This document shows, one piece after another, positions 2,003 through 45,926 of a stretch of 45,926 nucleotides of DNA (the first letter of the stretch is position 1; the number at the start of each line of letters is the position of its first letter). Source of the stretch: a virus; the UHGV virus genome UHGV-0253013; one strand, given 5' to 3'. The notes beneath the pieces were generated by a model, which ran no database searches, was not told the origin of the DNA, and saw only the letters and a program-made list of their open reading frames with translations. The position numbers were made by a program, and so were the translations under genes.

Positions 2003-2290
2003 ATGAGTACGCCTGAGGGGCGCATCCAGAAATACGCAAAAGAGAGATTTGAGGTCATGGGGGGCCTTGTACGCAAATTGTCGTACGAAAATAGAGTGGG
2101 AGCCCCTGACCTGCTGGTAATTCTCCCCGGCGGCATCGTCTGGTTCGTGGAGGTTAAGAAAGACGAAAACACGAAGCCTGACCCGCACCAGTTACGTGAG
2201 CATGAGCGGATGCGTAAACGCGGTGCAAATGTTTTTGTCGTTGGGTCGTTTAAACAGGTTGACGACCTAATAGCGAACTATTATAGTTAG
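2003..2290 (+). CDS. VRR-NUC domain nuclease
   Basis: GAPDLLVILPGGIVWFVEVKKDE...HQ pattern typical of VRR-NUC (PD-(D/E)xK) nucleases; sits in the replication cluster. Confidence 0.7.
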   Translation: MSTPEGRIQKYAKERFEVMGGLVRKLSYENRVGAPDLLVILPGGIVWFVEVKKDENTKPDPHQLREHERMRKRGANVFVVGSFKQVDDLIANYYS

Positions 2291-2320: not shown

Positions 2321-2512
2321 ATGAAACATGAATATGACCGCAAACCAGCACGCGACATCGTACCTGGCGATATGATTTTCAACGTCAAGACGCGCCAGCC
2401 TGTTGCCGTTGATACGGTGTTCGTAGAGTCGAACGGTAAACTGGTTATCGAAGACGTAACAGGAAACGTTACCGCGTTCGGGCGTAAAGAGCTGGTTCTG
2501 GTGGCCAAATGA
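2321..2512 (+). CDS. hypothetical protein
   Basis: ORF with AGGAATTGAG upstream; stop overlaps the helicase start (ATGA). Confidence 0.4.
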   Translation: MKHEYDRKPARDIVPGDMIFNVKTRQPVAVDTVFVESNGKLVIEDVTGNVTAFGRKELVLVAK

Positions 2513-11093: not shown

Positions 11094-11590
11094 TGCATCG
11101 GGTCCCAAATTCGTGGAAACGTAGTTTCGTAGTTCGCGTATATTTTCAGGAAACTATCCAGACAATCCCCGTAACAACCGTACAAATCTGGAAGATTGTT
11201 AATCAGGCACTGGTTCTCTTGGTCCTGGAACGGCGATTTCTCGGCGGTTGCCGTGAAGGTAATCGTCCAGTTAATGCCGTCTTCGGTGGACTCCGCGATG
11301 GTGGATGTAATTGTTACCTGGTAATCCTCAATACCCATGCCGAAGTCGTGCGCCATCCAGAAACTCGACGCACCACCGTCGACTTTCTCAAGGAACGACA
11401 GAAACGCCTGCCGACCCAGCGCCGATGTAATCAGGGTTACGCTTATCGGGAACACGTCGTAATACGTGTCACGGCCCTGACGCACCCCGCCACCGGCTAA
11501 ATCTACACTCCAGACGTTGTTACGTCTGGTCATTGAGTAGCCTTTTGATACCACCGGCTTTAAACTTGCTGGAAATTTCAAAGAAGACAT
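11090..11590 (-). CDS. minor/distal tail protein (M-like position)
   Basis: Synteny only: follows the tape measure gene on the same strand. Confidence 0.4.
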   Translation of the reverse strand: MSSLKFPASLKPVVSKGYSMTRRNNVWSVDLAGGGVRQGRDTYYDVFPISVTLITSALGRQAFLSFLEKVDGGASSFWMAHDFGMGIEDYQVTITSTIAESTEDGINWTITFTATAEKSPFQDQENQCLINNLPDLYGCYGDCLDSFLKIYANYETTFPRIWDPMQ

Positions 11591-11625
11591 GGCAAGATAC
11601 TCCTATTAGTTTAGGAGATACTAAC

Positions 11626-12276
11626 ATGATGCCAACCGAAAAAGTAGCCAAGAGCATGTGGCTGCGTGCGAATTATCCTGCGAACAAAAGCAGCAAAACT
11701 AAGCGTGCAACTATATGCGATTTTGGCATAAATGACGCCGATTATGTGGTTAGCCCCAAGATAAACGGCAAACGTGAGACGTGTCTGGCGTACGCTACAT
11801 GGAGAGGGATGATCCAACGTTGTGTGGACGCCGAGTATAAAAACAAAAGGCCTGCGTACAGGGATGTAACTGTGTGGCATGGGTGGCAAAGGTTTATGTC
11901 CTTCCGTGGATGGTGGATTTGTAATTATGTGGAGGGATGGGAGCTAGATAAGGACATATTCTCTGGTATTAATAAGGAATACAGCCCTACCACTTGCGTT
12001 TTCATCCCGAAGTGGTTGAATGTTTTCCTGCAGGAAAAGAAAAATAGTGGAACACCTACAGGTGTTTTTTATGAAGAATCTAGAGGTAAATTTAAAGCCT
12101 CAGTTAGCTATGGTAAAAAAACTATTAATCTAGGACGTTTTGAAACTCAGGAAGAAGCGCTAGATGCCTACATTGCTGAAAAGATAAGGGTGGCGGAATC
12201 AAGAAGATGTGAGATAGAGGCGATAAGGGAAGGTATGTTCGACCGCGTTATCGCCCTGATAAAAGAGGGACGTTAG
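11626..12276 (+). CDS. AP2-domain homing-endonuclease-like protein, opposite strand inside the tail module
   Basis: ATG ATG at 11626 preceded by AGGAG; C-terminal GVFYEESRGKFKASVSYGKKTINLGRFETQEEALDAYIAEK is AP2-like; N-terminal domain not assigned. Confidence 0.5.
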   Translation: MMPTEKVAKSMWLRANYPANKSSKTKRATICDFGINDADYVVSPKINGKRETCLAYATWRGMIQRCVDAEYKNKRPAYRDVTVWHGWQRFMSFRGWWICNYVEGWELDKDIFSGINKEYSPTTCVFIPKWLNVFLQEKKNSGTPTGVFYEESRGKFKASVSYGKKTINLGRFETQEEALDAYIAEKIRVAESRRCEIEAIREGMFDRVIALIKEGR

Positions 12277-15202: not shown

Positions 15203-15231
15203 TTGCACACCCCAATATAATAGGGTACTAT
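15203..15231 (+). promoter_or_regulatory. sigma70-like promoter, class A (TTGCAC-N17-TACTAT) with embedded AATAGGGTACTATT inverted repeat
   Basis: TTGCAC at 15203-15208, 17-nt spacer, TACTAT at 15226-15231; about 40 nt upstream of the ATG at 15272. Near-identical copies at 25976, 36521 (-) and 37566 (-). Confidence 0.5.
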
Positions 15232-15271
15232 TCACTTACACCAACGTTATTAACTTAAATAAGGAATTAAA

Positions 15272-15663: not shown

Positions 15664-16794
15664 ATGGCCCAGAAGAAAATAACCGACGAACAGTTACAGG
15701 AAGAATTGAACGCCGGGATGAAGAATGTAGACATCGCCCGTAAATACGGCATCTCAGACCGCGTTATTCGTATCCGTAAAGCAAAACTAGCTAAGAAAGG
15801 CGTAGGCCACGGACGCGACGTTAGCCACCTCGTACCAGACGGCTACAAGATTAAGGGCACGTCGTCACTTGTGGACGAGTTCGGCAACACTAAGTTGCAA
15901 TGGGTTAAGACCGACACCGACGCCGAACGTCAGGTCGAGTTGATGAAAGCCGTAATAGAAGGTATGAAGTCAGAGATTACGCCGGTTGCGCCTGTTAAAG
16001 CGACTCGCGCCAAACGCAACGATAAACTACTCAATCTTTACACGGTATCTGATTTTCATCTCGGTATGCTGGCTTGGGCCGACGAGAGCGGCGACGACTG
16101 GGATATGAAGATTGCGGAAGACCTGTTCTCCCGTTGGTTCGATGCTGCATTTCAGAAAGCACCAGATGCAGCAACTGGGGTTATTAACCTGCTGGGTGAT
16201 TTCGCGCACTTCGATAGTCTGGTTGCCGTTACACCCGCAAGCGGTCACGCCCTTGACGCTGACACTCGCTATCAGAAACTGGTGCGCTACATGATTCGTA
16301 TGGTCCGCCGTGTGGTGGATATGGCTCTGGTTAAGCATAAAAATGTTCGCTTGCTTATCGTACAAGGGAACCACGACGAAAGCGGAATGATTTGGTTGGC
16401 GGAGATGTTCAGTACGCTGTACGACAACGAGCCGCGTGTGTTCGTAGATACGTCGCCGGATGTCTACAAGATGGTGCAACATGGCAAAACGACTCTGTTC
16501 TTTACACACGGGCATAAATGCCGGTTTGAGGTGGTCGAACCCATTATGATAGCTAAGTTCAGAAAAGCATTTGGCGAAAGCGAGTACAGTTACGCGCATG
16601 TAGGACATCTCCACCATCAAAAGATTGTAGAAAGTAGGAATATGGTAGTGGAACAGCATCGCACTCTCGCGGCGAAAGATGCATATGCTTCTCGCGGCGG
16701 GTGGATGTCTAAGAGGTCCGCTAATGTCATAACCTATAGTTCAGAGTTCGGGGAAGTAGGTAGGCTTTCAATCTCACCGGAGATGCTAAGATGA
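15664..16794 (+). CDS. HTH domain fused to a calcineurin-like metallophosphoesterase (SbcD/Mre11-like or class III phosphodiesterase-like)
   Basis: N-terminal DIARKYGISDRVIRIRKAKL HTH-like; MPE motifs SDFHLG, GDFAHFD, QGNHDE, FTHGH, HVGHLHH in canonical order. Confidence 0.65.
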   Translation: MAQKKITDEQLQEELNAGMKNVDIARKYGISDRVIRIRKAKLAKKGVGHGRDVSHLVPDGYKIKGTSSLVDEFGNTKLQWVKTDTDAERQVELMKAVIEGMKSEITPVAPVKATRAKRNDKLLNLYTVSDFHLGMLAWADESGDDWDMKIAEDLFSRWFDAAFQKAPDAATGVINLLGDFAHFDSLVAVTPASGHALDADTRYQKLVRYMIRMVRRVVDMALVKHKNVRLLIVQGNHDESGMIWLAEMFSTLYDNEPRVFVDTSPDVYKMVQHGKTTLFFTHGHKCRFEVVEPIMIAKFRKAFGESEYSYAHVGHLHHQKIVESRNMVVEQHRTLAAKDAYASRGGWMSKRSANVITYSSEFGEVGRLSISPEMLR

Positions 16795-17261
16795 AGTATC
16801 TTGATGTTTCAAAACAATTTAAATACTGCCCTGAGACGGGGCAGGTTACCAGGATATCTACTGGTGCTGAGGTTGGTACGGTTGGTGTAAGAGGTTATTT
16901 GTGCTGCGGTATGGGTGGTAAAACAGTGTATGTCCACCGCATAGCATGGTGTCTTTATAATAAATGCAACTTAGACAGGAAAACTCAAATAGACCACATA
17001 AACCATAACAGGCTAGACAATAGGATAGAAAATCTACGCGCCACCGACAATACAGGGAACAGTAAAAATAAAACTATGCGAAAGATAAATAAATCCGGGG
17101 CCACAGGTGTAAGTTTCCACAAAGCCGCGGGTAAGTGGCGCGCGTTTATAAAAGTTAACTACAAACAAGTACATTTAGGGCTTTACGACGATTTTGATGT
17201 AGCGGTTGCCGCGCGTAAAGCCGCTGAAAGTAAATACGGTTTCCATGAAAACCATGAGTAG
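16791..17261 (+). CDS. HNH homing endonuclease with AP2-like domain (paralog 2 of 3)
   Basis: QIDHINHNRLDNRIENLRAT HNH motif; C-terminal SGATGVSFHKAAGKWRAFIKV...YGFHENHE closely parallels the 1270..1788 and 41257..41757 products. Confidence 0.8.
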   Translation: MKYLDVSKQFKYCPETGQVTRISTGAEVGTVGVRGYLCCGMGGKTVYVHRIAWCLYNKCNLDRKTQIDHINHNRLDNRIENLRATDNTGNSKNKTMRKINKSGATGVSFHKAAGKWRAFIKVNYKQVHLGLYDDFDVAVAARKAAESKYGFHENHE

Positions 17262-24307: not shown

Positions 24308-24350
24308 AGCTTAGCACATTTTTAGTGAAAAGTCAACTATTCGAATAGTT
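24308..24350 (-). promoter_or_regulatory. candidate promoter (TTGACT-N17-TAAGCT, minus strand) with a perfect 16-bp palindrome over the -35
   Basis: Plus-strand AACTATTCGAATAGTT (24335-24350) is a perfect palindrome of GAATAGTT half-sites; reverse complement gives TTGACT, 17 nt, TAAGCT. Confidence 0.35.
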
Positions 24351-25975: not shown

Positions 25976-26004
25976 TTGCAGACACCAACATAATAGGGTA
26001 CTAT
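25976..26004 (+). promoter_or_regulatory. sigma70-like promoter, class A (TTGCAG-N17-TACTAT)
   Basis: TTGCAG at 25976-25981, 17-nt spacer containing ATAATAGGG, TACTAT at 25999-26004; upstream of the ATG at 26032. Confidence 0.5.
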
Positions 26005-26031
26005 TCAGTTAACTTAAACAGGAGACGAAAG

Positions 26032-28874: not shown

Positions 28875-29029
28875 AGATATAGACCCTCGGGTATGGGTGT
28901 CAAAAGCCTAATAAAAATTAGGTTGCAAGTCACCAGAAACTCGCTACTGCGAGTTTTACTTGCACCGGGCTGGCGGTCAATATATCTTATCATTAAGCAG
29001 ATAAAAATGAATTGTTGGAGGGGATACGT

Positions 29030-30409
29030 ATGGGCAGAAGAATAACTGAAGAAGAAATCAAAAACCGGTTAGCTATGTTTGGGTTTAAATTGGTTGAATA
29101 TGGCGGGTCGCAAGTAGCAAAATCCGTTATAAAATGCCCCAATGGACACGAGGAATTGAAGTCGCTTAACACCTTCACGGCTAATGGTGTGCGCTGTAAA
29201 TCTTGCGCTGCTGCTGAAAGGAGTCTGGCGTACAGCACCGACGAGACCGAAGCGAGAAGGATAGTCGAGGACATGGGGTATTCGCTGATAAAATACGGCG
29301 GCAATTTGTACCGCAAAAAATCTACCGTCCAATGTGCAAACGGTCATGTGCGCGAAGTTCGCATAGGAAATATGGTTAAGGGTCATCGCTGCAAAAAGTG
29401 CGTGGCGGAAGCAATGTGTTTGGCGGAAGACGTGGTTAACACCAGACTACCAGATGGGGTCAAGATGGATTTTTACTGCGGCAACACGCGGGGGCTTAGT
29501 CTATTTTCTTGCGAAAAAGGGCACTCGTGGTCCGCATCCGTGAATAACGTAGTGTCTCAACAAACGAAATGTCCTAAATGCTCTAATAACGTAAGTGGTA
29601 TGGAAAAAGAAGTTCTGTCGTTTATCCGCGGAGTATACCCAGGTGTTGTCAATACGTCCGTACGGTCGCTTATCTCGCCGTTTGAGCTGGACATAGTATT
29701 GCCGGAGATTAAGGTGGCCATAGAATTTAACGGCATCTATTGGCATTCCGAGGCGAATGGTAAACACCGTAACTACCACATAAATAAGAGATTAGCGTGT
29801 GAGAAACTTGGGTACAGGCTGATAAGCGTACGAAGCGACCTTTGGTTAGAGAAGCGAGAGCATGTTGAGCGCATTTTGAAGAACGCGGTAGGGGTACGTA
29901 CTGTGTCTATTTTTGCCAGAAAATGTCGTGTGGTAGAGATAGCCAACAAAGACGCATTCCAGTTCTGTGAGGACAATCACATCCAGGGTGGGACAAAGGC
30001 TACAAAAGCGTATGCATTACTTCACGCTGGTGAGGTGGTTGCGGTAATGACTTTGGTACATTGGCGCCGCAAGGACTCATGGGAACTGGTGCGATATTGC
30101 ACCAGTACGTCCGTGCCCGGTGGCCTAAGTAAGCTGTGGAAACATGTGACGCAAGAAAACAACATTAAGCAAGCGTTCACTTATACCGACCGTGACCTTT
30201 TCACCGGTGCATCTTACGCAGAAGCTGGGTTTATATTTGATAGCTGCTCCGTAGGGTTTCGCGTTGTCGTAGGAACTCGTACAGAATCCCGCCAGAAATG
30301 GGGCAAAGCTCCCGAGGGTCTTACCCAAACAGAGTGGTACGAACGAGAAAAAGTGTCGCGCATATGGGATAGCGGTCAGGATAAGTGGGAATGGGTTAAA
30401 GGGGCATAA
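29030..30409 (+). CDS. putative homing endonuclease: three Zn-ribbon-like repeats plus DUF559/Vsr-like nuclease domain
   Basis: ATG at 29030 after GGAGGGG. Repeats CPNGHEELKS...CKSC, CANGHVREV...CKKC, CEKGHSWS...CPKC; then ELDIVLPEIKVAIEFNGIYWHSE; opposite strand between portal and terminase. Confidence 0.5.
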   Translation: MGRRITEEEIKNRLAMFGFKLVEYGGSQVAKSVIKCPNGHEELKSLNTFTANGVRCKSCAAAERSLAYSTDETEARRIVEDMGYSLIKYGGNLYRKKSTVQCANGHVREVRIGNMVKGHRCKKCVAEAMCLAEDVVNTRLPDGVKMDFYCGNTRGLSLFSCEKGHSWSASVNNVVSQQTKCPKCSNNVSGMEKEVLSFIRGVYPGVVNTSVRSLISPFELDIVLPEIKVAIEFNGIYWHSEANGKHRNYHINKRLACEKLGYRLISVRSDLWLEKREHVERILKNAVGVRTVSIFARKCRVVEIANKDAFQFCEDNHIQGGTKATKAYALLHAGEVVAVMTLVHWRRKDSWELVRYCTSTSVPGGLSKLWKHVTQENNIKQAFTYTDRDLFTGASYAEAGFIFDSCSVGFRVVVGTRTESRQKWGKAPEGLTQTEWYEREKVSRIWDSGQDKWEWVKGA

Positions 30410-33823: not shown

Positions 33824-33852
33824 AATATAATAGGGTCGATGGTAATAGTCAA
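33824..33852 (-). promoter_or_regulatory. sigma70-like promoter (TTGACT-N17-TATATT, minus strand)
   Basis: Minus-strand read GTTGACT, 17 nt, TATATT; about 35 nt upstream of the ATG at 33789. Confidence 0.5.
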
Positions 33853-34059
33853 CTAGTCATCGCAGAAAATAGATAAAAAAAATCCCGGCTGGGTCAGGGC
33901 CGGGATAAAACTGGAGAGCAGAGGGATGGAACAGGAGGTGATTTAAGTATCGTCGGATTGGTCTTAGGTGTCAACCTTTTCGACTCCCGCCAATCATACC
34001 CCAAATCACGCCAACTACCGCACCAGCTCCAATAGCCAGGAAAATGAAGTCAAACTCTG

Positions 34060-36359: not shown

Positions 36360-36520
36360 CAGCTTCACCCCTTTTCCCATCCACCCCGACTAGCAGCGAT
36401 TTAGTGTCGCCGTCGCACACCGAAGTGCTACCCATTATTTCGTAAGCGTCTACCAGTTCGCCTAAAGTCCAGCTACCGTACCAGCCCATCTTCTGTCTCT
36501 CCTCTCGTTTGTGTAAATGA

Positions 36521-36549
36521 ATAGTAGCCTATTCTATCTTAGTGTGCAA
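36521..36549 (-). promoter_or_regulatory. sigma70-like promoter, class A (TTGCAC-N17-TACTAT, minus strand)
   Basis: Minus-strand read CTTGCACACTAAGATAGAATAGGCTACTATTCA; the -10 overlaps an AATAGGCTACTATT inverted repeat. Confidence 0.5.
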
Positions 36550-37540: not shown

Positions 37541-37565
37541 TCCTCTGTCTCATTTCGATAAGTGA

Positions 37566-37594
37566 ATAGTACCCTATTATATTGGGGTGTGCAA
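37566..37594 (-). promoter_or_regulatory. sigma70-like promoter, class A (TTGCAC-N17-TACTAT, minus strand)
   Basis: Minus-strand read CTTGCACACCCCAATATAATAGGGTACTATTCACTTA, matching the 15203 copy over about 35 nt. Confidence 0.55.
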
Positions 37595-37821
37595 GAGAAT
37601 AGTTACGTTGCCGTTGTGATTCTTCGGGGAAGGTTGTGCCTTTATTCTTATTACTTGGTAACTAAAGGGCAGGCCTTAAGCCTGCCCAATAATCGTTACA
37701 TTTTTACGGTTGCGAATCTACGGCACATTAAGAAACAGTAGATATTTCAGCGGGTTACTTCTTTAAATGAGATTTAGATACACTTATCCTTAAACCCCAA
37801 GGCAAGCATCTCAGCTGTCTG

Positions 37822-37862
37822 GGAGGGGTTGACGAATCCCTCGGGGAGGGTTCGTCAACTCC
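37822..37862. repeat. imperfect inverted repeat centred on TTGACGAA / TTCGTCAA in the divergent control region
   Basis: GGAGGGGTTGACGAATCCCTC followed directly by GGGGAGGGTTCGTCAACTCC; arms pair over about 17 bp with small bulges. Confidence 0.5.
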
Positions 37863-37952
37863 GTAATATATACAAGTCCCAAAACCATTATACAAACATG
37901 TGTCAAGAACTTTCAATAACATTTTTGTAAAGATTAAATATTACAGAGATTG

Positions 37953-37981
37953 GTTGCTTTTACATTCCCGCTATCCTATAC
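37953..37981 (+). promoter_or_regulatory. sigma70-like promoter for the rightward replication genes (TTGCTT-N17-TATACT)
   Basis: TTGCTT at 37953-37958, 17-nt spacer, TATACT at 37976-37981; about 30 nt upstream of the ATG at 38014. Confidence 0.45.
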
Positions 37982-38013
37982 TCGGTTTCGCTAAACAAAC
38001 AGGAGATATAAAA

Positions 38014-38196
38014 ATGTCGCATTATATGACGCAGAATGAAGTAGCTGAACGTATCGGGGTGACACGTCAGACAATTAATAACTGGTTGCGCAGCGGCAAA
38101 TTCCCTGACTGCTGTATTAAGGTTATGGGCCGCCGTTTACCGGGAACATTTGACCGTAATAAAGTCGAAGCATGGATTAAGGAGAACGTGAAATGA
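38014..38196 (+). CDS. small HTH DNA-binding protein (AlpA/excisionase-like fold)
   Basis: ATG at 38014 after AGGAG; MSHYMTQNEVAERIGVTRQTINNWLRSGKFP is a typical small phage HTH regulator sequence. Confidence 0.55.
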   Translation: MSHYMTQNEVAERIGVTRQTINNWLRSGKFPDCCIKVMGRRLPGTFDRNKVEAWIKENVK

Positions 38197-38483
38197 AAGG
38201 CGTAATTTTCCACAATAAAGCAGAAAACGAAGTGTATATGGTTCACTCCGTGGCCGGAGAGTTCGCTTTATGCTTCAATATCTCTTGCCATCTTGATACC
38301 TACCGGCCTTTCTGCGTAGAAACAGAAATGAAGCTAATTAGCTTACGCCAACTAAGCACCATGTCGGCATCGCTTAACGTAAGAGATAATCTCGAGTATA
38401 TCGACTTCTATTTCGGCGATGATTTGGTCGAGGAATATTTTGAAGAGTATAAAAATTTGCTGGAAGGGTTGGCTAAACGGTAA
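38193..38483 (+). CDS. hypothetical protein
   Basis: ATGA-coupled ORF after the HTH gene. Confidence 0.4.
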   Translation: MKGVIFHNKAENEVYMVHSVAGEFALCFNISCHLDTYRPFCVETEMKLISLRQLSTMSASLNVRDNLEYIDFYFGDDLVEEYFEEYKNLLEGLAKR

Positions 38484-38552
38484 AAAGAAACCCCAACGCA
38501 AGAACGTCGGGGCCAAAGCACAAATCATCAAAGTAAGCACAAGGATTATACA

Positions 38553-38681
38553 ATGACGAAGTTAATAGTTCCACAGCTGCGCCGACAGAAACACGGCGCC
38601 GATTTCTTCGCGCCGGTAAAGATGAACCGCGCAATGCGCCGTATGCAGGAAGCCTTAGAACGTGCGGAGAAAAAGAAATGA
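38553..38681 (+). CDS. small basic protein (42 aa)
   Basis: ATG after AAGGA; stop overlaps the start of the primase/helicase gene; below the track size cut-off. Confidence 0.3.
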   Translation: MTKLIVPQLRRQKHGADFFAPVKMNRAMRRMQEALERAEKKK

Positions 38682-40900
38682 ATATTGTTTTTGCAACGCT
38701 GCGTAACACATTCGATAAAAACCCTGTAGCGCGTGAAATGCCGCTGGAGCAGTTTGTCGAGTATGTCTGCGATACATCGAAGCGTTTATCCGTGGACCCG
38801 TCATGGACTAAGGAAGAGTACGACGCTGCCAAGATTAAACAGAAAGCTATTGCGCCTGTTGGTGGTCGCCGTAAAAACGCTATCCTGGAAGACAGTGTGG
38901 TTAAGTTCGATTTCGACCATCTCAACCGTACTCAGTACCGCGACCTGACACGCAAATTCAAGAACGCGCCGTTCTTCAATATTCTGCACACAACGGCATC
39001 GCATCAGCACGCATGTAAAAACGGATATTACGCTTTCCGCGTTCTGGTTCCAGCTCGCACGCCGTTTAACTCTAACGACGCGTGGATGGTGCAACGTGCT
39101 ATTTGTGCAGAGTTAGAAATAGACGAAGCGTTGCGCGACCACTGCACAGAAGACGGCAACCGCCTTATCTACCTGCCGCATAAAGAGTCGAAGATAACGG
39201 TCACAGAAGGGCGCGTTATCCGCGCCGAGCGGTACATCAAGAAAGCCGAAGAGATGGGGTTGCGTAAGCGTGAGGCTAAAACACTTGCCGCTGATGAGCA
39301 TGGGCTTAACGCGGATATAGCACACTTCTGCGAAGCCGAGCTTGGCCTTGACGCTTTATCTTCCGGGCGCGGGTACGAAGTGCCATGCCCTAACGAACAT
39401 CTGCATACAGGCAAGGGCTCCACCAGCATAATGCTCGACGGTAAAGAAGTGCGCTTTGTCTGCCAGCATACAAACAACGGCGCTTGCACCGAGCTTAACC
39501 GTAGGCAGCATTTGGCCCTGCGTATGTGTGGCCTACCCGACGAGCTTAACGTAGATAAGCAACCTATCAGCATTAACAGCATTCGTGCGGCTCTGCCTGA
39601 TTTACCGGAAGAAGAGATTGAAGAACTACACCGCACAGAGAACGAGGACCCAGTAACTTGCAGCCTCGACGACCTGGAAGACGATGCGGAATCAGAGGAG
39701 GACGAGTTACCAGAACCGGTAAAGGCTGATTTCGTCGTTGAAGGGTACATGCCGTCGGATTGCATCTGGGATATCGTCGGGGAGTCGGGCACATACAAAT
39801 CGTTCTATACGCTGGGGATGATGTATCTTAGCGCCGCCGGATACCGGTTCGCCGGGGCGGACACCCAGCGTTGCCATCACTTCTATATTGATGGTGAAGG
39901 TGGTGCGGCTACACGTACACGTATCGATGCACTCGCGGCTAAATACGGCGAGGAAGGTAAAGATTATGTACATGTCATCGACATGGGTGAAGTCGGCAAA
40001 CTGAAAAACCTGATTAAGTTGATGCGTGAAACTGCTGGCGACGAGCCAATTGGGATGGTCGCGTTCGACACCCTTAACCAGACCCTGGCTCTGACGATTG
40101 ATAAGTTCGATGAGAACAGTTCATCGACGGCAATCGGCATGGGTAAAGTTATCGCCATCCTGAAAGAAGTACGCGACGCAACTAAAGCCGCGGTAGGCGT
40201 CGTCCACCATACCCCGAAGGGTGGAAAGAAAGCCCGTGGCAGTGGCGCGCTGTACGCAGGCGTCGATGTGGAACTGACAATTGAACGCGCAACCGACCGT
40301 CAGATAAATGTATACCACTCTAAATTTAAGCACGGGCCTCAACAGAAGACGGTTGGTATGGTGCTGGAGTCGGTACAGTTCCGTGAAGCCCCGCCGCCGA
40401 AAGAGTACCGTGCGGTTGAGTTCCTGGGTAGCACAGAGGAATACGGCACAATCGTAAACCTGGACCTTCCTGAGCCGCACAAGGCACTTGTGCTGATGCC
40501 GTGGGGATTCGAGCCGTTCAAGACCGACGAAGAGAAAGAGCGGGAAGAAGGGTTGACTAACGAAGGTAAGCAAAAAGTAAAGGAAGAAGTTAAACGCGGC
40601 AGGGATGAAGTAAGGAAGGAGTCAATACTTTCGGCACTGGAAGACCTGCAACAGTCAGATGACACAGGTCGCGGTTTTACTCAGCAGCAGATAGTTGCCC
40701 GTTCCGGTGACTTTTCTGTGACTAACACCCATCTTGATAAAATGCTGAAAGATGGCGAACTAATGCTAGGCTGTGACGTTAACGGCGAAGTAGTGCCGAG
40801 AACGTATCGTATACCTGAAAGAATAGGGGATAGACTAAGGCCGAAGACAATATACGAACCGAATGAAATGCTGGTGGTGACAGAGGAGGATTTGGAGTAG
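38678..40900 (+). CDS. primase/helicase-like replication protein with RecA-type ATPase domain
   Basis: 740 aa; Walker A GESGTYKS, Walker B-like GMVAFDTL, VGVVHHTPKGG; N-terminal domain with Cys/His cluster; acidic linker. Confidence 0.65.
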   Translation: MNIVFATLRNTFDKNPVAREMPLEQFVEYVCDTSKRLSVDPSWTKEEYDAAKIKQKAIAPVGGRRKNAILEDSVVKFDFDHLNRTQYRDLTRKFKNAPFFNILHTTASHQHACKNGYYAFRVLVPARTPFNSNDAWMVQRAICAELEIDEALRDHCTEDGNRLIYLPHKESKITVTEGRVIRAERYIKKAEEMGLRKREAKTLAADEHGLNADIAHFCEAELGLDALSSGRGYEVPCPNEHLHTGKGSTSIMLDGKEVRFVCQHTNNGACTELNRRQHLALRMCGLPDELNVDKQPISINSIRAALPDLPEEEIEELHRTENEDPVTCSLDDLEDDAESEEDELPEPVKADFVVEGYMPSDCIWDIVGESGTYKSFYTLGMMYLSAAGYRFAGADTQRCHHFYIDGEGGAATRTRIDALAAKYGEEGKDYVHVIDMGEVGKLKNLIKLMRETAGDEPIGMVAFDTLNQTLALTIDKFDENSSSTAIGMGKVIAILKEVRDATKAAVGVVHHTPKGGKKARGSGALYAGVDVELTIERATDRQINVYHSKFKHGPQQKTVGMVLESVQFREAPPPKEYRAVEFLGSTEEYGTIVNLDLPEPHKALVLMPWGFEPFKTDEEKEREEGLTNEGKQKVKEEVKRGRDEVRKESILSALEDLQQSDDTGRGFTQQQIVARSGDFSVTNTHLDKMLKDGELMLGCDVNGEVVPRTYRIPERIGDRLRPKTIYEPNEMLVVTEEDLE

Positions 40901-40909
40901 GTAAAAAGA

Positions 40910-40927
40910 AAGGGGCATTAAGCCCCT
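40910..40927. terminator. bidirectional terminator between convergent genes
   Basis: AAGGGGC-ATTA-GCCCCTT hairpin between the primase/helicase stop (40900) and the leftward XRE gene stop (40918). Confidence 0.5.
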
Positions 40928-41133
40928 TCACCTAGCGCCAGCCACTTGGCGTCTACCTCCAGCACTTCCGCCAGTTTAAACAGCGTTGCCGGGCGGACGT
41001 CCTGGGTTACCCCAAGTGCCAGCTGGTTAATTGCGCCCTGGGAAACCCCGGTCAGCACCGCCAGACGGCGCTGGGAAATACCGAGTTCTTTACGGCGCTG
41101 TTCTACACGGATGCCTAGTTCAGATGGTTGCAT
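40918..41133 (-). CDS. XRE-family HTH transcriptional regulator (Cro/CI-like)
   Basis: RRKELGISQRRLAVLTGVSQGAINQLALG is a canonical XRE helix-turn-helix; the only leftward gene in the rightward replication block. Confidence 0.7.
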   Translation of the reverse strand: MQPSELGIRVEQRRKELGISQRRLAVLTGVSQGAINQLALGVTQDVRPATLFKLAEVLEVDAKWLALGEGA

Positions 41134-41197
41134 GTCAATTACTCCTTAGTCAGTTGATATGTGAATAGTACCATATTAATTATTTTAGAAAAGCCCG

Positions 41198-41226
41198 TTG
41201 ACAAGTGAATAGTTCGCTATTATAGT
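41198..41226 (+). promoter_or_regulatory. sigma70-like promoter, class B (TTGACA-N17-TATAGT) with embedded operator-like inverted repeat
   Basis: TTGACA at 41198-41203, spacer AGTGAATAGTTCGCTAT, TATAGT at 41221-41226; a related GTGAATAGTACCATATTAAT element lies at 41161-41180. Confidence 0.55.
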
Positions 41227-41256
41227 TAGCCCATACCAAACGAGAGGGTACGCGAC

Positions 41257-41757
41257 ATGGATACCAAATACATTAAAACGTCTATGTTCAGTTATGAACC
41301 AGAAACTGGAGTACTTCGATGGGCTGTAAAGAGGGGCAAGGTTAAACCAGGAGACGAGGCCGGATGTTTGGCCAAAACATGCGGGTATAGAATGGTTAGA
41401 CTAGACGGTGTGTTAACCCCGGTACACAGGATAGTATGGGATATGCTTAATCCTACGGATAAACTACAAGAAGGTGACGAAATAGACCATATAGACCACG
41501 ATAAACTTAATAACCGAGCTTCTAATCTTAGAAAAGTTTGCCACCTATCAAATATGCACAACAGGTCAAAGCACAAGAACAACACATCAGGTGTAACCGG
41601 CGTGTCTTGGGTGGGGAAGCAAAATAAGTGGTATGCGTACATATACAAAAAAGGTACAAATTACAACTTAGGATACTTTTCAAAATTTGAAGATGCTGTT
41701 TTCGCAAGAAAAGAAGCAGAAATAAAACTCAACTTCCATAAAAATCACGGAGAATGA
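41257..41757 (+). CDS. HNH homing endonuclease with AP2-like domain (paralog 3 of 3)
   Basis: EIDHIDHDKLNNRASNLRKV HNH motif; C-terminal SGVTGVSW...YFSKFEDAVFARKEAE...NFHKNHGE parallels the other two paralogs. Confidence 0.8.
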   Translation: MDTKYIKTSMFSYEPETGVLRWAVKRGKVKPGDEAGCLAKTCGYRMVRLDGVLTPVHRIVWDMLNPTDKLQEGDEIDHIDHDKLNNRASNLRKVCHLSNMHNRSKHKNNTSGVTGVSWVGKQNKWYAYIYKKGTNYNLGYFSKFEDAVFARKEAEIKLNFHKNHGE

Positions 41758-41760
41758 ACC

Positions 41761-42243
41761 ATGTTAGAACAATTTATTAAATTACTGGAACGTTTCGTAG
41801 TCGCCCATGAACTGATTGCTGCGAATAGTGCGAAACAAGTTAATGTTGCAAAAACTGCATTAGTCGCAGAGGTCGTTGAACAAACCGCAACAATCGAGAC
41901 AGCAAAAGAAAGCCCGGTTGAAGGTGAAGACATCGTCGACACTAAACCGGCAGAAGAAGAGAAGCCAAAACGTAAGCCGCGTAAAGCTAAAGTAGAGGAG
42001 TCGACGCCAGAACCAGAAGAAGAGAAAGAAGAGGTCGATTACCAGTCTCTTCGTGACCAGATTCAGGCTATCGACGATGCAATTAACGAAGGTCCGAGTG
42101 ATGCCGCGTGCGACGATTCTGATGAACTGCTGGAAGAGTTTACCGGTAAGAAAATGAAGATTGCTGCGATTAAAGACGAAGACCTGGCTGAATACCTGGA
42201 ACGTCTGACGGCAATCAAGAACAAGTATTTCGAAGAAGAATAA
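41761..42243 (+). CDS. highly acidic protein
   Basis: 160 aa with long Glu/Asp-rich stretches (EPEEEKEEVDYQ, DDSDELLEEF). Confidence 0.45.
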   Translation: MLEQFIKLLERFVVAHELIAANSAKQVNVAKTALVAEVVEQTATIETAKESPVEGEDIVDTKPAEEEKPKRKPRKAKVEESTPEPEEEKEEVDYQSLRDQIQAIDDAINEGPSDAACDDSDELLEEFTGKKMKIAAIKDEDLAEYLERLTAIKNKYFEEE

Positions 42244-42286
42244 TTATCTCGCGGCCTTCGGGCCGCTTTAACTGAGGGTCGGAATA

Positions 42287-42502
42287 ATGAGTAACGTATA
42301 CAAAGTAATAAACGAACAAATAGTTGTAGAAATAAGTGACTCATATGTGGGTTGTCAGCGATTCTTTGTTTTGAATGGTGCGTGGCGCGGGACTCTTGAC
42401 TATGCCGCTGGCGAATATTGGGCGGACATGTACCCAACCGATAAAACGGCGGTACATACAATTCGTCCCGCCGTTAAAGGTGAATTTGCGCCGTACTACT
42501 GA
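42287..42502 (+). CDS. hypothetical protein
   Basis: ORF preceded by the conserved leader ACTGAGGGTCGGAATAATGA. Confidence 0.4.
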   Translation: MSNVYKVINEQIVVEISDSYVGCQRFFVLNGAWRGTLDYAAGEYWADMYPTDKTAVHTIRPAVKGEFAPYY

Positions 42503-42513
42503 GGGTCGGAATT

Positions 42514-42717
42514 ATGACTATTTTAGCTAAGAAAAGTGGTCTTATGATTTCTGGCAGTGTTGTCGCTGAAAATGATTTGGTTTACGTATTTCAGGCGGTA
42601 GACAACAAACACCCTACGACGGTCAAGAAGGCCAGCAAAGTTGAGAAGGTTTTCGACGGCGATTTTTCTATTGACGATGTTTTCACGTGGATTAATTCTG
42701 CGAGGGTAAGGAAATGA
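42514..42717 (+). CDS. hypothetical protein
   Basis: ORF preceded by a second copy of the conserved leader (ACTGAGGGTCGGAATTATGA). Confidence 0.4.
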   Translation: MTILAKKSGLMISGSVVAENDLVYVFQAVDNKHPTTVKKASKVEKVFDGDFSIDDVFTWINSARVRK

Positions 42718-42986
42718 TTTACCAACTCTACCGCGCCGTCGACAGGCGGGACAACACAGAGGCACTATGGCTGTTGCGTGCGCCGTCCGGAGCGCACCAG
42801 ATGGAAGAGATGGCTTACTTAGGCAAAGTACCGCGGCCTAAAGATATAGGCCGTCACGTGTCACAGATTAAGCGCACGACTTTCGCCAAACCTGACTTTT
42901 ATGTCTTCGAGTCTATGTATGGGTGGGCTATGCTTTGTGATCATAAGACACGACATTTAATCGACCAGTGGGAGAACAGGGTATGA
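42714..42986 (+). CDS. hypothetical protein
   Basis: ATGA-coupled ORF upstream of the DUF2800-like gene. Confidence 0.4.
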   Translation: MIYQLYRAVDRRDNTEALWLLRAPSGAHQMEEMAYLGKVPRPKDIGRHVSQIKRTTFAKPDFYVFESMYGWAMLCDHKTRHLIDQWENRV

Positions 42987-44224
42987 TTTTAAAAGAACGC
43001 GGTGGTAATAACGATGTGCACGCCCTGCTGTCGCCGTCTGGTGCTAAAAAGTGGCTGAGTTGTGCCGCGTCACTGGCCTGTGAAAAAGGTATTCCTAACA
43101 CATCCGGTAAATCCGCCGTTACAGGAACCGCGTGCCACACTATAGCTGAGGTCCATCTTAACCAGTACATCAAAGGCACTGCGTTGCCGTTAGAGCGTGA
43201 AGTCGGCGCTTACGTGCTGGATGAGGGCAGAGGCCAGATTAAGGCACTAATCGGTCCGATGAAAGGCGCGGTACTTATTACGGCGGACATGATTGAACAG
43301 GTGCGCAAGTACACCGACTACTGCAAAGCGATTATAGATGTAGCGACTTACGCTAAGCTGGAAATGCGCGTCAATCTTACTGAGGTATTGCATCCGGGGT
43401 ATGAAGGCGTTGAGACGTTCGGGACTGCTGACCTTGTTGCCGTACAGGAACTGGCTAACACAGACGAACATATTCTCATTATCGGCGACCTGAAAACAGG
43501 ACGGCATCGTGTCGAAGCGAAAGAAAACAAGCAGCTTATGCTTTACGCTCTCGGTGTTTATCGCCGACTCAAGAGGCGTTATAACATCACCGTGGTTCGT
43601 CTGGTAATTTTCCAGCCGTGCGCTGGTGGTGCGTCGGAGTGGGACATCTCGGTTGAAGGCCTTGAACTGTTCGCTAAGTTTGCACAAAAACGAGCACTGT
43701 TAGCGCTCGATGCCTATTCCCGCGGCAAGAAGAACCTGAAAGCGTCTGACTTTAAGCCGTCGGTCGATGGTTGTCAGTGGTGTCGGTTCTCTGAACAATG
43801 CGCCGCGCGTACAAAAACCGTTAACGCTGTACTGGCGGAAGAACTGGAGGACGACTTTGCGCTGGAACTGACGCCGGAGCAACTTGTAGCTGAGTATGAG
43901 AAGTTGCCGTTGTTGCGCCAGCACATCGACAAGGTTGAGAAAGCTATGGCTGCCGCGCTGCATTCCGGTAAGAAAGTGCCGGGGTACAAACTGGTAGAAG
44001 GACGCCCAGGTAATCGTGCGTGGAAAGACGCGGAGAAAGTTGCTGGCAAGTATGGCATAGCGCTAATGAAGCAAGTGCTCATGACGCCAACCGAAGCTGT
44101 TAAAGTCATACCGGAAGATGAACTGAAAGACTTCATTACCCGTAAGCCAGGAGCGCCATGTGTCGCAACGGCAAACGACAAACGTCCTGAGTGGAATCGG
44201 GTTAGTGAAGAAGATTTAGAATAA
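42968..44224 (+). CDS. PD-(D/E)xK nuclease, DUF2800/Cas4-like
   Basis: N-terminal HALLSPSGAKKWLSC is the DUF2800 signature; C-terminal Cys cluster CQWCRFSEQC; sits upstream of the DUF2815-like and polymerase genes. Confidence 0.65.
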   Translation: MGEQGMILKERGGNNDVHALLSPSGAKKWLSCAASLACEKGIPNTSGKSAVTGTACHTIAEVHLNQYIKGTALPLEREVGAYVLDEGRGQIKALIGPMKGAVLITADMIEQVRKYTDYCKAIIDVATYAKLEMRVNLTEVLHPGYEGVETFGTADLVAVQELANTDEHILIIGDLKTGRHRVEAKENKQLMLYALGVYRRLKRRYNITVVRLVIFQPCAGGASEWDISVEGLELFAKFAQKRALLALDAYSRGKKNLKASDFKPSVDGCQWCRFSEQCAARTKTVNAVLAEELEDDFALELTPEQLVAEYEKLPLLRQHIDKVEKAMAAALHSGKKVPGYKLVEGRPGNRAWKDAEKVAGKYGIALMKQVLMTPTEAVKVIPEDELKDFITRKPGAPCVATANDKRPEWNRVSEEDLE

Positions 44225-44228
44225 AGTG

Positions 44229-44257
44229 TTGACACCTGAATAGTTAGCTATTATAGT
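44229..44257 (+). promoter_or_regulatory. sigma70-like promoter, class B (TTGACA-N17-TATAGT) with embedded operator-like inverted repeat
   Basis: TTGACA at 44229-44234, spacer CCTGAATAGTTAGCTAT, TATAGT at 44252-44257; same architecture as the 41198 copy. Confidence 0.55.
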
Positions 44258-44311
44258 TCTAATCACTGGCCTGGCAGCTTCCAGGAGTAAACTGAAAAGC
44301 GAGAAATTAAG

Positions 44312-44938
44312 ATGGGAATTAAACTGAATCTGCGTAAAGTAAACACTGCATGGGTTAACGTATTCGAACGCGAAAAAGACCGTGAAAACGATGATGGCTC
44401 CATCACTAAAGGCCAGTATAGCGCGACTATCATCCTGCCGCCTGACCACGCTCAAATCGATGCACTCTACGACACTGTTTACGCTGTAGTTGAAGAAGCG
44501 TTAGGCGCAGCTGCTGCCGAGAAATGGATGAAGTCCAACTACGGCGAAGGTAAGCACATGGATAAATGCGCGATTAAAGACATTGCTGAGCGTGATAACC
44601 CGTTTGAAGACTTCCCAGAAGGCTTCTACTTCAAAGCGAAGGCGCAGAAGCAGCCGCTGATTGTAACCTCTAAAAAAGGTGAGACTCAGGTGGAGCAGGA
44701 CTTCAACGTAGACGGCGAACAGATTGAAGGCGAACAGGTTTACAGTGGCTGTGTCGCTAACGTAAGCGTCGAAATCTGGTTCAGCCAGAAATATAAAGTT
44801 CTCGGGGTTAACCTGCTGGCGATTAAGTACGTCGGTGAAGGTAAAGCGTTCGGCGGTTCTAAAGTCGCCGCAAGCGTCGACGACCTGGAAGACGACGAAG
44901 AAGATGAAGCACCGCGCCGCGAACGTCGCCGCCGTTAA
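44312..44938 (+). CDS. DUF2815-like protein (putative ssDNA-binding protein)
   Basis: 208 aa with acidic C-terminal tail (DDLEDDEEDEAPRRERRRR); placed between the DUF2800-like nuclease and the polymerase. Confidence 0.55.
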   Translation: MGIKLNLRKVNTAWVNVFEREKDRENDDGSITKGQYSATIILPPDHAQIDALYDTVYAVVEEALGAAAAEKWMKSNYGEGKHMDKCAIKDIAERDNPFEDFPEGFYFKAKAQKQPLIVTSKKGETQVEQDFNVDGEQIEGEQVYSGCVANVSVEIWFSQKYKVLGVNLLAIKYVGEGKAFGGSKVAASVDDLEDDEEDEAPRRERRRR

Positions 44939-44957
44939 TATCTGAATAAATTTAACT

Positions 44958-44981
44958 AAGGCCCTTCATTGGGCCTTTTTA
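44958..44981 (+). terminator. rho-independent terminator / attenuator
   Basis: AAGGCCC-TTCATT-GGGCCTT hairpin followed by TTTT; between the DUF2815-like and polymerase genes. Confidence 0.5.
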
Positions 44982-44997
44982 CTAAGGGTTGAAAATA

Positions 44998-45926
44998 ATG
45001 AGTTACCTGTTCTTAGACTTTGAAACATTCTCCGAAGCCGATTTAAAGAAAGTCGGCTCCTACGCTTACGCCGAACACCCGACTACCGAAGTGCTTATCT
45101 GCACATATGCTTTTGACGACGAGCCTGTGCGGGTATGGGATTGCACCGACGGCAGCGACATGCCGGGTGATTTGCACCGCGCACTGCGCCGCCTGGTTAA
45201 GCCGAACAGTCGTATTAAGATGGTGTGGCACAACGGCTCAATGTTCGACAGGCTCATCATGAAACACTGCTGGGGCTTTGATATTCCCGTAAGCAACACC
45301 ATTGATACGATGATTTGGGCGTTTCGTCACGCGCTGCCGGGTTCACTTGATGCGCTGTGTGAAGTGCTTGGCGTGTCTGCTGACAATGCAAAAGATAAAC
45401 GCGGCAAGGCGCTGATTCAGCGTTTCTCTAAACCGACACCGAAGAATTACAAAATCCGCCGCTACACCGCAGAAACACACCCGGACGAGTGGGCGCTGTT
45501 CATCAAGTACGCCGTGAGCGACATCACTGCGATGCGTGAAGTCTTCCATAAGCTGCCGCGTTGGGGTAACTCTGAGTTCGAAGACCGTGTACTGGAACTG
45601 GACCAGTTAATCAACGACCGCGGGTTTAAGGTTGACGTTGCACTGGCGGAAGCCGCTATTGAAGCCGTGGAGAAACACAAAGCGCAGTTACAGGAGGAAG
45701 CCCAACGCAAATACGGCGGCTCGCTTACTGGTAAGGACTTTCTGCCGATTCTTCGTGAACTCGCCCCTGCACACCGCATACACAACGCACAGAAGTCGAC
45801 GCTTAACGACCTGCTGGCGGACGATGATTTACCGGACGACGCACGCACAATTATCGAAATGCGCCTGGGGGCAGCGTCCACTGCATCAACGAAATATAAC
45901 CCGCTGCTGTTAGGTCGCTCTTCGGA
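44998..45926 (+). CDS. DNA polymerase, family A, N-terminal 3'-5' exonuclease domain; 3' end lies outside the window
   Basis: ATG at 44998 after the leader ACTAAGGGTTGAAAATAATGA; LFLDFETFSEADL is an Exo I-like motif; frame still open at the last base. Confidence 0.8.
   Translation, partial: MSYLFLDFETFSEADLKKVGSYAYAEHPTTEVLICTYAFDDEPVRVWDCTDGSDMPGDLHRALRRLVKPNSRIKMVWHNGSMFDRLIMKHCWGFDIPVSNTIDTMIWAFRHALPGSLDALCEVLGVSADNAKDKRGKALIQRFSKPTPKNYKIRRYTAETHPDEWALFIKYAVSDITAMREVFHKLPRWGNSEFEDRVLELDQLINDRGFKVDVALAEAAIEAVEKHKAQLQEEAQRKYGGSLTGKDFLPILRELAPAHRIHNAQKSTLNDLLADDDLPDDARTIIEMRLGAASTASTKYNPLLLGRSS

Follow-up and report, generated by a model that had tools for sequence, protein, structure and literature searches.

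A lone Cro-sized XRE gene and a genome-wide family of promoter-embedded palindromes in a Kagunavirus: a candidate autoregulated repressor acting in lytic growth

In UHGV virus genome UHGV-0253013, one small gene with a DNA-binding fold runs leftward inside a block of rightward replication genes, which raises the question of what such a gene would regulate and through which sites. The whole stretch analysed here, hereafter the window, is a 45.9 kb Kagunavirus-type siphophage genome (Guernseyvirinae; an Escherichia coli phage) that, from its open reading frame (ORF) lengths, appears to be complete and circularly permuted, opened within the DNA polymerase gene; its 38000-45000 block shares 96% identity with Escherichia phage JSSK01 and has matches in 448 Kagunavirus and Jerseyvirus records. 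The gene in question, the XRE ORF at 40918-41133 on the minus strand, is the sole minus-strand gene from the HTH_17 gene (38014) to the end of the window, and the ORF map thus confirms the first-pass annotation of this DNA, which had described it as the only leftward gene among rightward replication genes. Its plus-strand neighbours are the HTH_17 gene, a gene for 96 amino acids (aa) and the helicase-primase gene, then the HNH, p160, DUF2800 exonuclease and Enc34-type SSB genes. We observe that the two elements upstream of XRE are part of about ten promoter-embedded operators spread over the genome and not of a local OR-type cluster, and we hold, with somewhat more confidence than doubt, that XRE is a Cro-like repressor, autoregulated and global in reach, that operates in the course of lytic growth; its binding to these sites we infer.

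The window has seven exact copies of the core AATAG-N4-CTATT where 0.02 would be expected, and none of 300 shuffles gave more than one. When up to one mismatch is allowed, 11 copies are found (1.2 expected), and the longer form GTGAATAGN4CTATT with up to two mismatches gives 10 matches (1.05 expected). Among 5-N-5 inverted repeats none is more over-represented than this core, either here or in the genome of Jerseyvirus SP-101. Three of the one-mismatch copies are promoter-associated and bring the promoter-embedded sites, together with the seven exact copies, to about ten; the eleventh copy (38838) falls within the helicase gene, probably by chance. Two sites lie upstream of XRE and are given further below; the dispersed ones are:

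2269-2282, unstranded: operator in the spacer of promoter 2259-2287 (plus strand, TTGACG-N17-TATAGT), which serves a 63-aa gene and the SNF2 helicase gene; orthologous in SP-101 and ST20.
15219-15232, unstranded: operator over the -10 of promoter 15203-15231 (plus strand, TTGCAC-N17-TACTAT), at a rightward island within the tail operon.
24328-24341, unstranded: one-mismatch operator over a putative -35 TTGACT (24331-24336, leftward), upstream of the genes for spanin, scaffold and capsid.
25992-26005, unstranded: operator over the -10 of promoter 25976-26004 (plus strand, TTGCAG-N17-TACTAT).
33844-33857, unstranded: one-mismatch operator over the -35 TTGACT of promoter 33824-33852 (minus strand), upstream of the packaging genes; invariant in relatives.
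36520-36533, unstranded: operator over the -10 of promoter 36521-36549 (minus strand, TTGCAC-N17-TACTAT), for small early genes.
37565-37578, unstranded: operator over the -10 of promoter 37566-37594 (minus strand), and also in the spacer of a weaker promoter match, TCGATA-17-TATATT, at 37555-37583 (plus strand).
44239-44252, unstranded: operator in the spacer of promoter 44229-44257 (plus strand, TTGACA-N17-TATAGT), for the SSB and DNA polymerase genes.

The palindrome takes three registers within these promoters. In the TTGACA-N17-TATAGT promoters of replication operons (2269, 41208 and 44239) it sits in the spacer, right against the -10; in the TTGCAC-N17-TACTAT promoters of early leftward genes and two rightward islands (15219, 25992, 36520 and 37565) it covers the -10; and, in one-mismatch form, it lies over a TTGACT -35 upstream of head/tail and packaging genes (24328 and 33844). 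The site at 24328 adjoins CTATTC-GAATAG in the inverse arrangement and is kept in SP-101 and ST20, and its assignment to a promoter is tentative. At 37555-37594 the leftward TTGCAC-N17-TACTAT promoter and the weaker rightward TCGATA-17-TATATT match overlap fully with one operator common to both, and may form a mutually exclusive divergent pair for the early leftward genes and the HTH_17-helicase operon.

A repeat that recurs in promoters could also be a mere conserved promoter sequence spread by duplication, or the promoter of a phage RNA polymerase, in which case there would be no repressor at these sites and the target of XRE would be unrelated. The same consensus was found seven times by PHIRE in phage fBC-Eco01 (tgAATAGTa-ccTATTat-T) and called phage RNA polymerase promoters (PMC9825357), and flanks such as GTG and ATAGT are partly conserved beyond the palindrome, both of which would fit such an element. 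However, no RNA polymerase or sigma factor matches were found among the large ORFs of this phage or in its annotated relatives, and the repeat occupies three registers relative to good sigma70 hexamers. Because the palindrome stays constant while it slides relative to the -35 and -10, it is not a core promoter element, and its two-fold symmetry, invariant half-sites and free centre are the signature of a site for a dimeric protein, not of an RNA polymerase contact. We therefore consider a promoter element of either kind very improbable and reject the phage RNA polymerase label, since the large ORFs and annotated relatives show no polymerase gene and the register to the sigma70 hexamers varies; the term "phage-encoded RNA polymerase" in PMC9825357 appears to be an artefact of PHIRE terminology, a published reading of the repeat that the present analysis corrects.

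Turning to the XRE gene itself, we compared its surroundings in a phylogenetic footprint of 36 Kagunavirus loci from IMG/VR which, together with 10 Jerseyvirus loci, makes 46. The elements of the locus are:

40909-40929, minus strand: intrinsic terminator of XRE, a hairpin that overlaps the stop codon, from a terminator scan and folds of both strands.
41142-41146, minus strand: Shine-Dalgarno sequence AGGAG, 8 nucleotides (nt) upstream of the XRE ATG; invariant in the 46 Kagunavirus and Jerseyvirus loci.
41164-41177, minus strand: proximal operator O-prox, AATAGTACCATATT, one mismatch away from the palindrome; AATATGGTACTATT when read on the XRE strand.
41198-41226, plus strand: rightward sigma70-type promoter TTGACA-N17-TATAGT, an 11/12 match, for the HNH, p160 and exonuclease operon.
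41208-41221, unstranded: distal operator O-dist, AATAGTTCGCTATT, whose palindrome core is perfect, within the spacer of the 41198-41226 promoter.

Read on the XRE strand, 41150-41200 gives cgggcTTTTCTaaaataattAATATGGTACTATTcac, then AGGAG, then ATG. The -10 TACTAT (41165-41170) lies inside O-prox and is preceded by TG at 41172-41173, which makes it an extended -10 with no good -35; the sole mismatch of O-prox (AATAG to AATAT on the XRE strand) is what creates TGnTACTAT. The O-prox region is, as far as its sequence predicts, XRE's own promoter and putative autoregulatory site. An operator copy that overlaps the gene's own core promoter, as expected of an autoregulated repressor, is conserved at the sequence level in the 46 loci, and in Jerseyviruses the orthologous XRE promoter is a full TTGCAC-N17-TACTAT with a two-mismatch operator. 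A weaker alternative XRE promoter, TTCACT-16-TAAAAT at 41209-41182, is possible. Both elements noticed by the first-pass annotation hold up as members of one family: the element embedded in the TTGACA-N17-TATAGT facing promoter (GTGAATAGTTCGCTATT) is O-dist in its spacer, and GTGAATAGTACCATATT at 41161-41177, within the string quoted at 41161-41180, is indeed related to it. The latter had been placed next to the promoter; it does more than that, in that it overlaps XRE's own -10 TACTAT.

With its own promoter region and a terminator that overlaps its stop codon, XRE is monocistronic. The U-tract of the terminator is present on the minus strand only and there is none on the helicase-sense strand, so that helicase-operon transcripts probably read through it, antisense to XRE. 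Jerseyvirus SP-101 also keeps the terminator, built there from another stem and loop.

With respect to conservation, O-prox and its flanks are near-invariant across the 36 Kagunavirus loci; the half-sites GAATAG and CTATT of O-dist are the same in all of them, with TTCG, TTCA, TTAG, CTAG, TTTG or CTCG at its centre and a linker to the -35 that varies in sequence and length. All sites together show at least 12 forms of the central 4 base pairs (bp), and each orthologous promoter keeps its operator in every locus. The flanking base is G in Kagunaviruses and T in Jerseyviruses (TAATAG-N4-CTATTA), and the distance between the centres of O-prox and O-dist is 44 bp in the former and 55 bp in the latter. 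The own-promoter copy is imperfect in every locus, 36/36 in Kagunavirus and 10/10 in Jerseyvirus. The position of the facing promoter is conserved from Kagunavirus out to phage Scapp. In two distant relatives (L073 and L078), the conserved AAAGTGCTTGCA -35 region of the XRE-facing promoter lies within a 23-bp palindrome, TAAAGTGCT-N5-AGCACTTTA, another operator solution for one and the same promoter.

The XRE product has 71 aa and matches Pfam HTH_3 (PF01381) with 47.2 bits (cut-off 23; E=2.3e-12), and its best phmmer matches among solved structures are 434 Cro (E=7.9e-6) and the N-terminal domain of 434 repressor, both at about 1e-5. An AlphaFold2 (AF2) model, built from the single sequence and hence supportive only, has a predicted local distance difference test score (pLDDT) of 85.2 and five helices (5-17, 21-28, 32-39, 48-57 and 62-66), of which the second and third make up the helix-turn-helix. 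Foldseek places this model closest to 434 Cro (2cro) at a template modelling (TM) score of 0.77-0.83; the entries 2cro, 3cro, 1adr, SinR and C.AhdI match at TM 0.73-0.81, and 434 Cro, P22 c2, SinR and the controller proteins of restriction-modification (R-M) systems fall at TM 0.73-0.83. 434 Cro, 434 repressor and P22 c2, its nearest relatives of solved structure, bind inverted repeats of 14-18 bp as dimers. XRE belongs to the HTH_3 / 434 Cro fold family, in agreement with its first annotation as an XRE-family helix-turn-helix gene, and GenBank records already label it "transcriptional repressor". The protein comprises the helix-turn-helix domain alone, with no oligomerisation or protease domain in its 71 aa, and the gene is under strong purifying selection (ratio of nonsynonymous to synonymous polymorphism, pN/pS, 0.06; 35 DNA alleles). 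The recognition helix, S31-Q32-G33-A34-I35-N36-Q37-L38, is invariant in the 36 Kagunavirus loci bar one G33S variant whose operator is unchanged, and covariation of helix and operator within the genus is uninformative.

The resemblance to 434 extends from the protein to its candidate sites. In both sequence and structure the best match of this 71-aa, five-helix HTH_3 protein is 434 Cro, which is likewise 71 aa long and of that fold, and the alignment gives it a Gln at the first recognition-helix contact, as in 434 Cro and repressor, and another at the position of repressor Q33. The 434 operator is a 14-bp site with conserved outer bases and a variable centre that overlaps promoter elements and has a copy on the regulator's own promoter, and the repeat associated with XRE shares its length, conserved outer bases, variable centre, promoter overlap and own-promoter copy. 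Unlike in 434, the half-site is AATAG instead of ACAA, there is neither a partner CI nor a tripartite OR, the sites are two local ones 44 bp apart plus about eight dispersed ones, and the phage is virulent, with no lysogeny module found.

The first-pass annotation had likened the layout to an autoregulated Cro/CI-type switch. The own-promoter operator agrees with the autoregulatory half of that claim; the switch itself falls away for lack of a partner repressor. The genes divergent from XRE are those of the HNH protein and p160, the latter without a DNA-binding match, and the sole other helix-turn-helix gene, HTH_17, is 2.7 kb away and co-directional with the helicase. The C-terminal oligomerisation/S24 autocleavage domain of CI is absent from the 71-aa XRE, and homologues of CI length (208-235 aa) are found only in unrelated contigs such as L043 and L057-L060. 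An integrase, noted as missing at first pass, is likewise not annotated in any of five complete relatives (attP was not searched for directly). With partner repressor, CI C-terminal domain and integrase all lacking, the locus is not a CI/Cro switch.

If not a switch, which protein binds the palindrome? About 35 proteins of the window were scanned against Pfam and PHROG, and this returned no DNA-binding regulator beyond XRE and HTH_17. The second candidate and the region around it are:

38014-38196, plus strand: HTH_17 (excisionase/MerR-like) gene of 60 aa, from Pfam and PHROG; candidate binder, rejected.
38014-38681 of the window, against 6954-7539 in ST20 (L089), 12559-13144 in L028 and 3624-4209 in L014: region swapped between relatives.

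HTH_17 is 82% identical between Kagunavirus and Jerseyvirus, compared with 48% for XRE, it is missing from the motif-less phage PSDA-2, and across 80 loci the presence of the motif coincided with HTH_17 as well as with an inverted helicase block. It is nevertheless ruled out as the binder, since ST20, L014 and L028 have no HTH_17 and retain all operators. ST20, a cultured phage with a complete genome, has an XRE that is 96% identical and six exact plus three one-mismatch operators on the same promoters. The metagenomic loci L014 and L028 and the cultured phages ST20 and GZMU_E2010 have, in place of HTH_17 and the 96-aa gene, an unrelated 47-aa zinc-ribbon gene and a 149-aa gene, and they carry a different helicase-primase N-terminus. 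This suggests that HTH_17, the 96-aa gene and the helicase N-terminus form a co-adapted, exchangeable replication-initiation cassette; being dispensable for the operators, HTH_17 more likely belongs to such a swappable module.

Outgroups without HTH_17 keep XRE and carry related dyads in both promoters that flank it. The dyad is GAATAG-TTTA-GTATTA in L054 and GATTAG-TTTA-GTATTA in PSDA-2, and L061 has, besides a perfect TAATAC-CGAC-GTATTA, the dyad AATAC-TACG-GTATA in the XRE promoter, each of these two sites having a changed inner base in either half. Judged from these few lineages, the dyads are suggestive of XRE as the binder. A search for over-represented palindromes in PSDA-2, Tsm2 and Scapp returned none; the outgroup dyads are local and lineage-specific, and only L061 is clean.

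Under the reading that we favour, that of a self-regulating repressor, a dimer of XRE would bind the 14-bp inverted repeat AATAG-N4-CTATT, and occupancy of the -10 and spacer sites would exclude RNA polymerase. The perfect sites on early, replication and island promoters would fill first, the copies on the own promoter and on the -35 of the structural promoters being deliberately imperfect. A weak own site would give negative autoregulation and cap XRE near the level at which one-mismatch sites begin to fill. The net effect would be a self-limiting dampening or shut-off of the transcription of early and replication genes by host RNA polymerase as infection proceeds, through which XRE may time lytic gene expression.

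Several observations weigh against this reading. Operators are also found on structural-gene promoters, where a simple early shut-off would not need them. RNA sequencing of K1B4 over 5-120 min, which distinguishes early, middle and late classes only, lists the XRE orthologue as "middle" and HTH_17 as "early", a resolution too coarse for the question at hand. The Kagunavirus and Jerseyvirus XRE proteins, 48% identical, differ at four of eight recognition-helix positions (SQGAINQL versus SQSLITHL), and despite this the 10-bp core is identical in both genera, with a difference in the flank (G versus T), which is uncomfortable for XRE as the specificity determinant. Several small conserved proteins are common to the motif-bearing genomes and missing from PSDA-2, and one of them may be an unrecognised binder. 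In literature searches, we found annotation of XRE only, with no binding or expression experiment, and no paper that links the XRE gene and the repeat or tests either.

The constancy of the core under differing helices also fits a palindrome bound by another factor, be it an unrecognised small phage protein or an E. coli/Salmonella host transcription factor, with XRE acting locally via another site. The multi-copy spread of the motif is moreover limited to the Kagunavirus/Jerseyvirus clade while XRE homologues are found well beyond it, and this clade has several small proteins of its own, one of which, with 63 aa, shows 98% identity from one genus to the other. These proteins show no DNA-binding signature, however, the best-annotated alternative HTH_17 is dispensable, and the related dyads at both XRE-flanking promoters occur in outgroups that have no HTH_17. 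A host-factor site that these phages need is argued against by PSDA-2, which infects Salmonella too and yet has no motif, and we know of no E. coli regulator with an AATAG-N4-CTATT consensus; the geometry of the palindrome presumably resembles that of the P22 and TrpR operators. Taken together, we regard another binder as unlikely. As for the 63-aa protein itself (2321-2512, plus strand; PHROG 4879), its identity between Kagunavirus and Jerseyvirus is far above the genome average, it is encoded by the first gene after an operator-bearing promoter, and it looks beta-rich and has no family match.

The presence of operators on early, replication and structural promoters alike would also fit a global silencer, with XRE maintaining a non-integrated, quiet episome (a carrier state or pseudolysogeny) along with superinfection immunity, and the operators serving to silence the whole genome. 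The paper on Jerseyvirus SGP-C describes turbid plaques and thrice-purified colonies that release phage, are positive by polymerase chain reaction and are immune to SGP-C, and proposes an episome; this evidence is weak and would also fit resistant mutants contaminated with phage. Plasmid pC16EC0033-2 (CP088689.1), from an E. coli isolate from blood, is an entire Kagunavirus that carries this locus; it represents either a carrier state or a contaminated culture. This PLSDB record (L088) is a circular, complete assembly of 44,086 bp with the layout HTH_17, helicase, XRE (minus strand), exonuclease, SSB and PolA. It is the only match among 72,556 records of plasmid collections, with no Jerseyvirus among them, and a search of 5,426 complete E. 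coli genomes returned no prophage copy. Silencing is further opposed by the lack of integrase, partition or plasmid-maintenance genes in the annotation of relatives, by most isolates being described as clear-plaque lytic phages, and by the size of XRE, whose 71 aa do not include the C-terminal domain to which CI repressors owe their cooperative and stable repression. We consider it improbable that XRE is such a silencer. We share the first-pass view that lytic regulation is likelier than classical lysogeny.

A genome-wide operator set is unusual for a virulent phage, and dispersed-operator repressors are known from temperate ones, namely P1 C1, gp71 of mycobacteriophage L5 with its "stoperators" and the c repressor of phiC31 with its CIR sites. 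XRE would be like these in being a small repressor with many genome-scattered sites at or near promoters. Their sites are asymmetric (P1 and L5) or belong to prophage-forming temperate phages, whereas here the sites are symmetric and strictly inside core promoters, and no prophage state is known. The C proteins of R-M systems (C.AhdI, C.BclI and C.Esp1396I), autoregulatory XRE-fold dimers of about 70-80 aa whose own-promoter sites of graded affinity time the expression of neighbouring genes, share the fold of XRE and are among its top structural matches. C proteins act on one or two adjacent promoters and activate first and repress later; unlike them, XRE is not flanked by R-M genes and its candidate sites are genome-wide.

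A further comparison is with the orthologous modules of PSDA-2, Tsm2 and Scapp (the last from a different genus), in which an XRE that is 38-49% identical sits at a divergent promoter pair with related spacer dyads. In these phages, as in about 24 uncultured relatives, the helicase-primase operon begins with XRE, which is divergent from the operon of p160, DUF2800 exonuclease, DUF2815 SSB and PolA genes and is thus co-transcribed with helicase-primase, with local sites only; in the phage studied here XRE is monocistronic, its helicase block has the inverted orientation, and about eight further promoters carry the operator. Judging by gene order, the lone leftward layout is derived, the helicase block having been inverted in Kagunaviruses and Jerseyviruses and having gained an upstream module of its own, and XRE stands alone between converging and diverging neighbours because of this inversion. 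The two neighbours are:

38678-40900, plus strand: replicative helicase-primase gene, which converges on XRE and lies co-directionally downstream of it in outgroups.
41257-41757, plus strand: HNH_3 homing endonuclease gene (Pfam and PHROG), between the promoter with its 5' untranslated region (5'UTR) and the p160 gene.

The HNH gene is a mobile insertion outside the regulatory circuit; at the facing-promoter site it is missing in JSSK01, Bas76 and most loci, and present in some Jerseyviruses. An insertion hot spot lies at 41227-41256, just 3' of the conserved 5'UTR TAGCCCATACCAAACGAGAGG of the XRE-facing promoter, with an equivalent spot in L007-L053, and at least six different first genes occupy it across Kagunaviruses.

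Elsewhere in the window, a non-coding region of about 420 nt (37595-38013) upstream of HTH_17 contains a 15-bp inverted repeat (37825-37839 / 37848-37862, TTGACGAA...TTCGTCAA) and, on the minus strand, a strong sigma70-like promoter that has no operator (37916-37887, TTGAAA-18-TATAAT, 11/12); the region may serve as an origin or in immediate-early control. The window gave no matches in Rfam and tRNA scans. The SNF2-family helicase ORF (2509-4974, plus strand, 821 aa) carries an intein with Hom_end-associated Hint and LAGLIDADG domains at residues ~34-303, and the helicases of Bas76 and ST20, at 475 aa, have none. Homing-endonuclease-type genes are unusually many (1270-1788, 16791-17261, 41257-41757, 11533-12276 and 29012-30409, all on the plus strand). 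The set includes three HNH_3+AP2 ORFs, one AP2-containing ORF on the opposite strand within the tail operon, and, between the portal and TerL genes, an ORF of 465 aa in which a treble-clef zinc finger and REase_MTES_1575 occur. These homing genes and the helicase intein may explain why the genome is ~2-4 kb larger than its relatives.

In small virulent siphophages such as this one, which lack an RNA polymerase, a sigma factor and any known activator, one autoregulated repressor acting through about ten promoter-embedded operators is a concrete and easily tested hypothesis on the order of gene expression. Jerseyviruses and Kagunaviruses (e.g., CM001 and Bas70-76) are used in therapy, biocontrol, synthetic biology and as engineering chassis, and the Guernseyvirinae are treated as strictly virulent. 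That one Cro-sized repressor with operators on essentially every promoter could silence the whole genome across this subfamily, with a non-integrated carrier or pseudolysogenic state and homo-immunity, is in our view a long shot; if true, it would explain the SGP-C "lysogens" and a Kagunavirus assembled as a clinical E. coli plasmid. In practical terms, the questions are whether the annotated "transcriptional repressor" is harmless lytic housekeeping or supports a carrier state, and whether the expression of a payload could be tuned via the operator.

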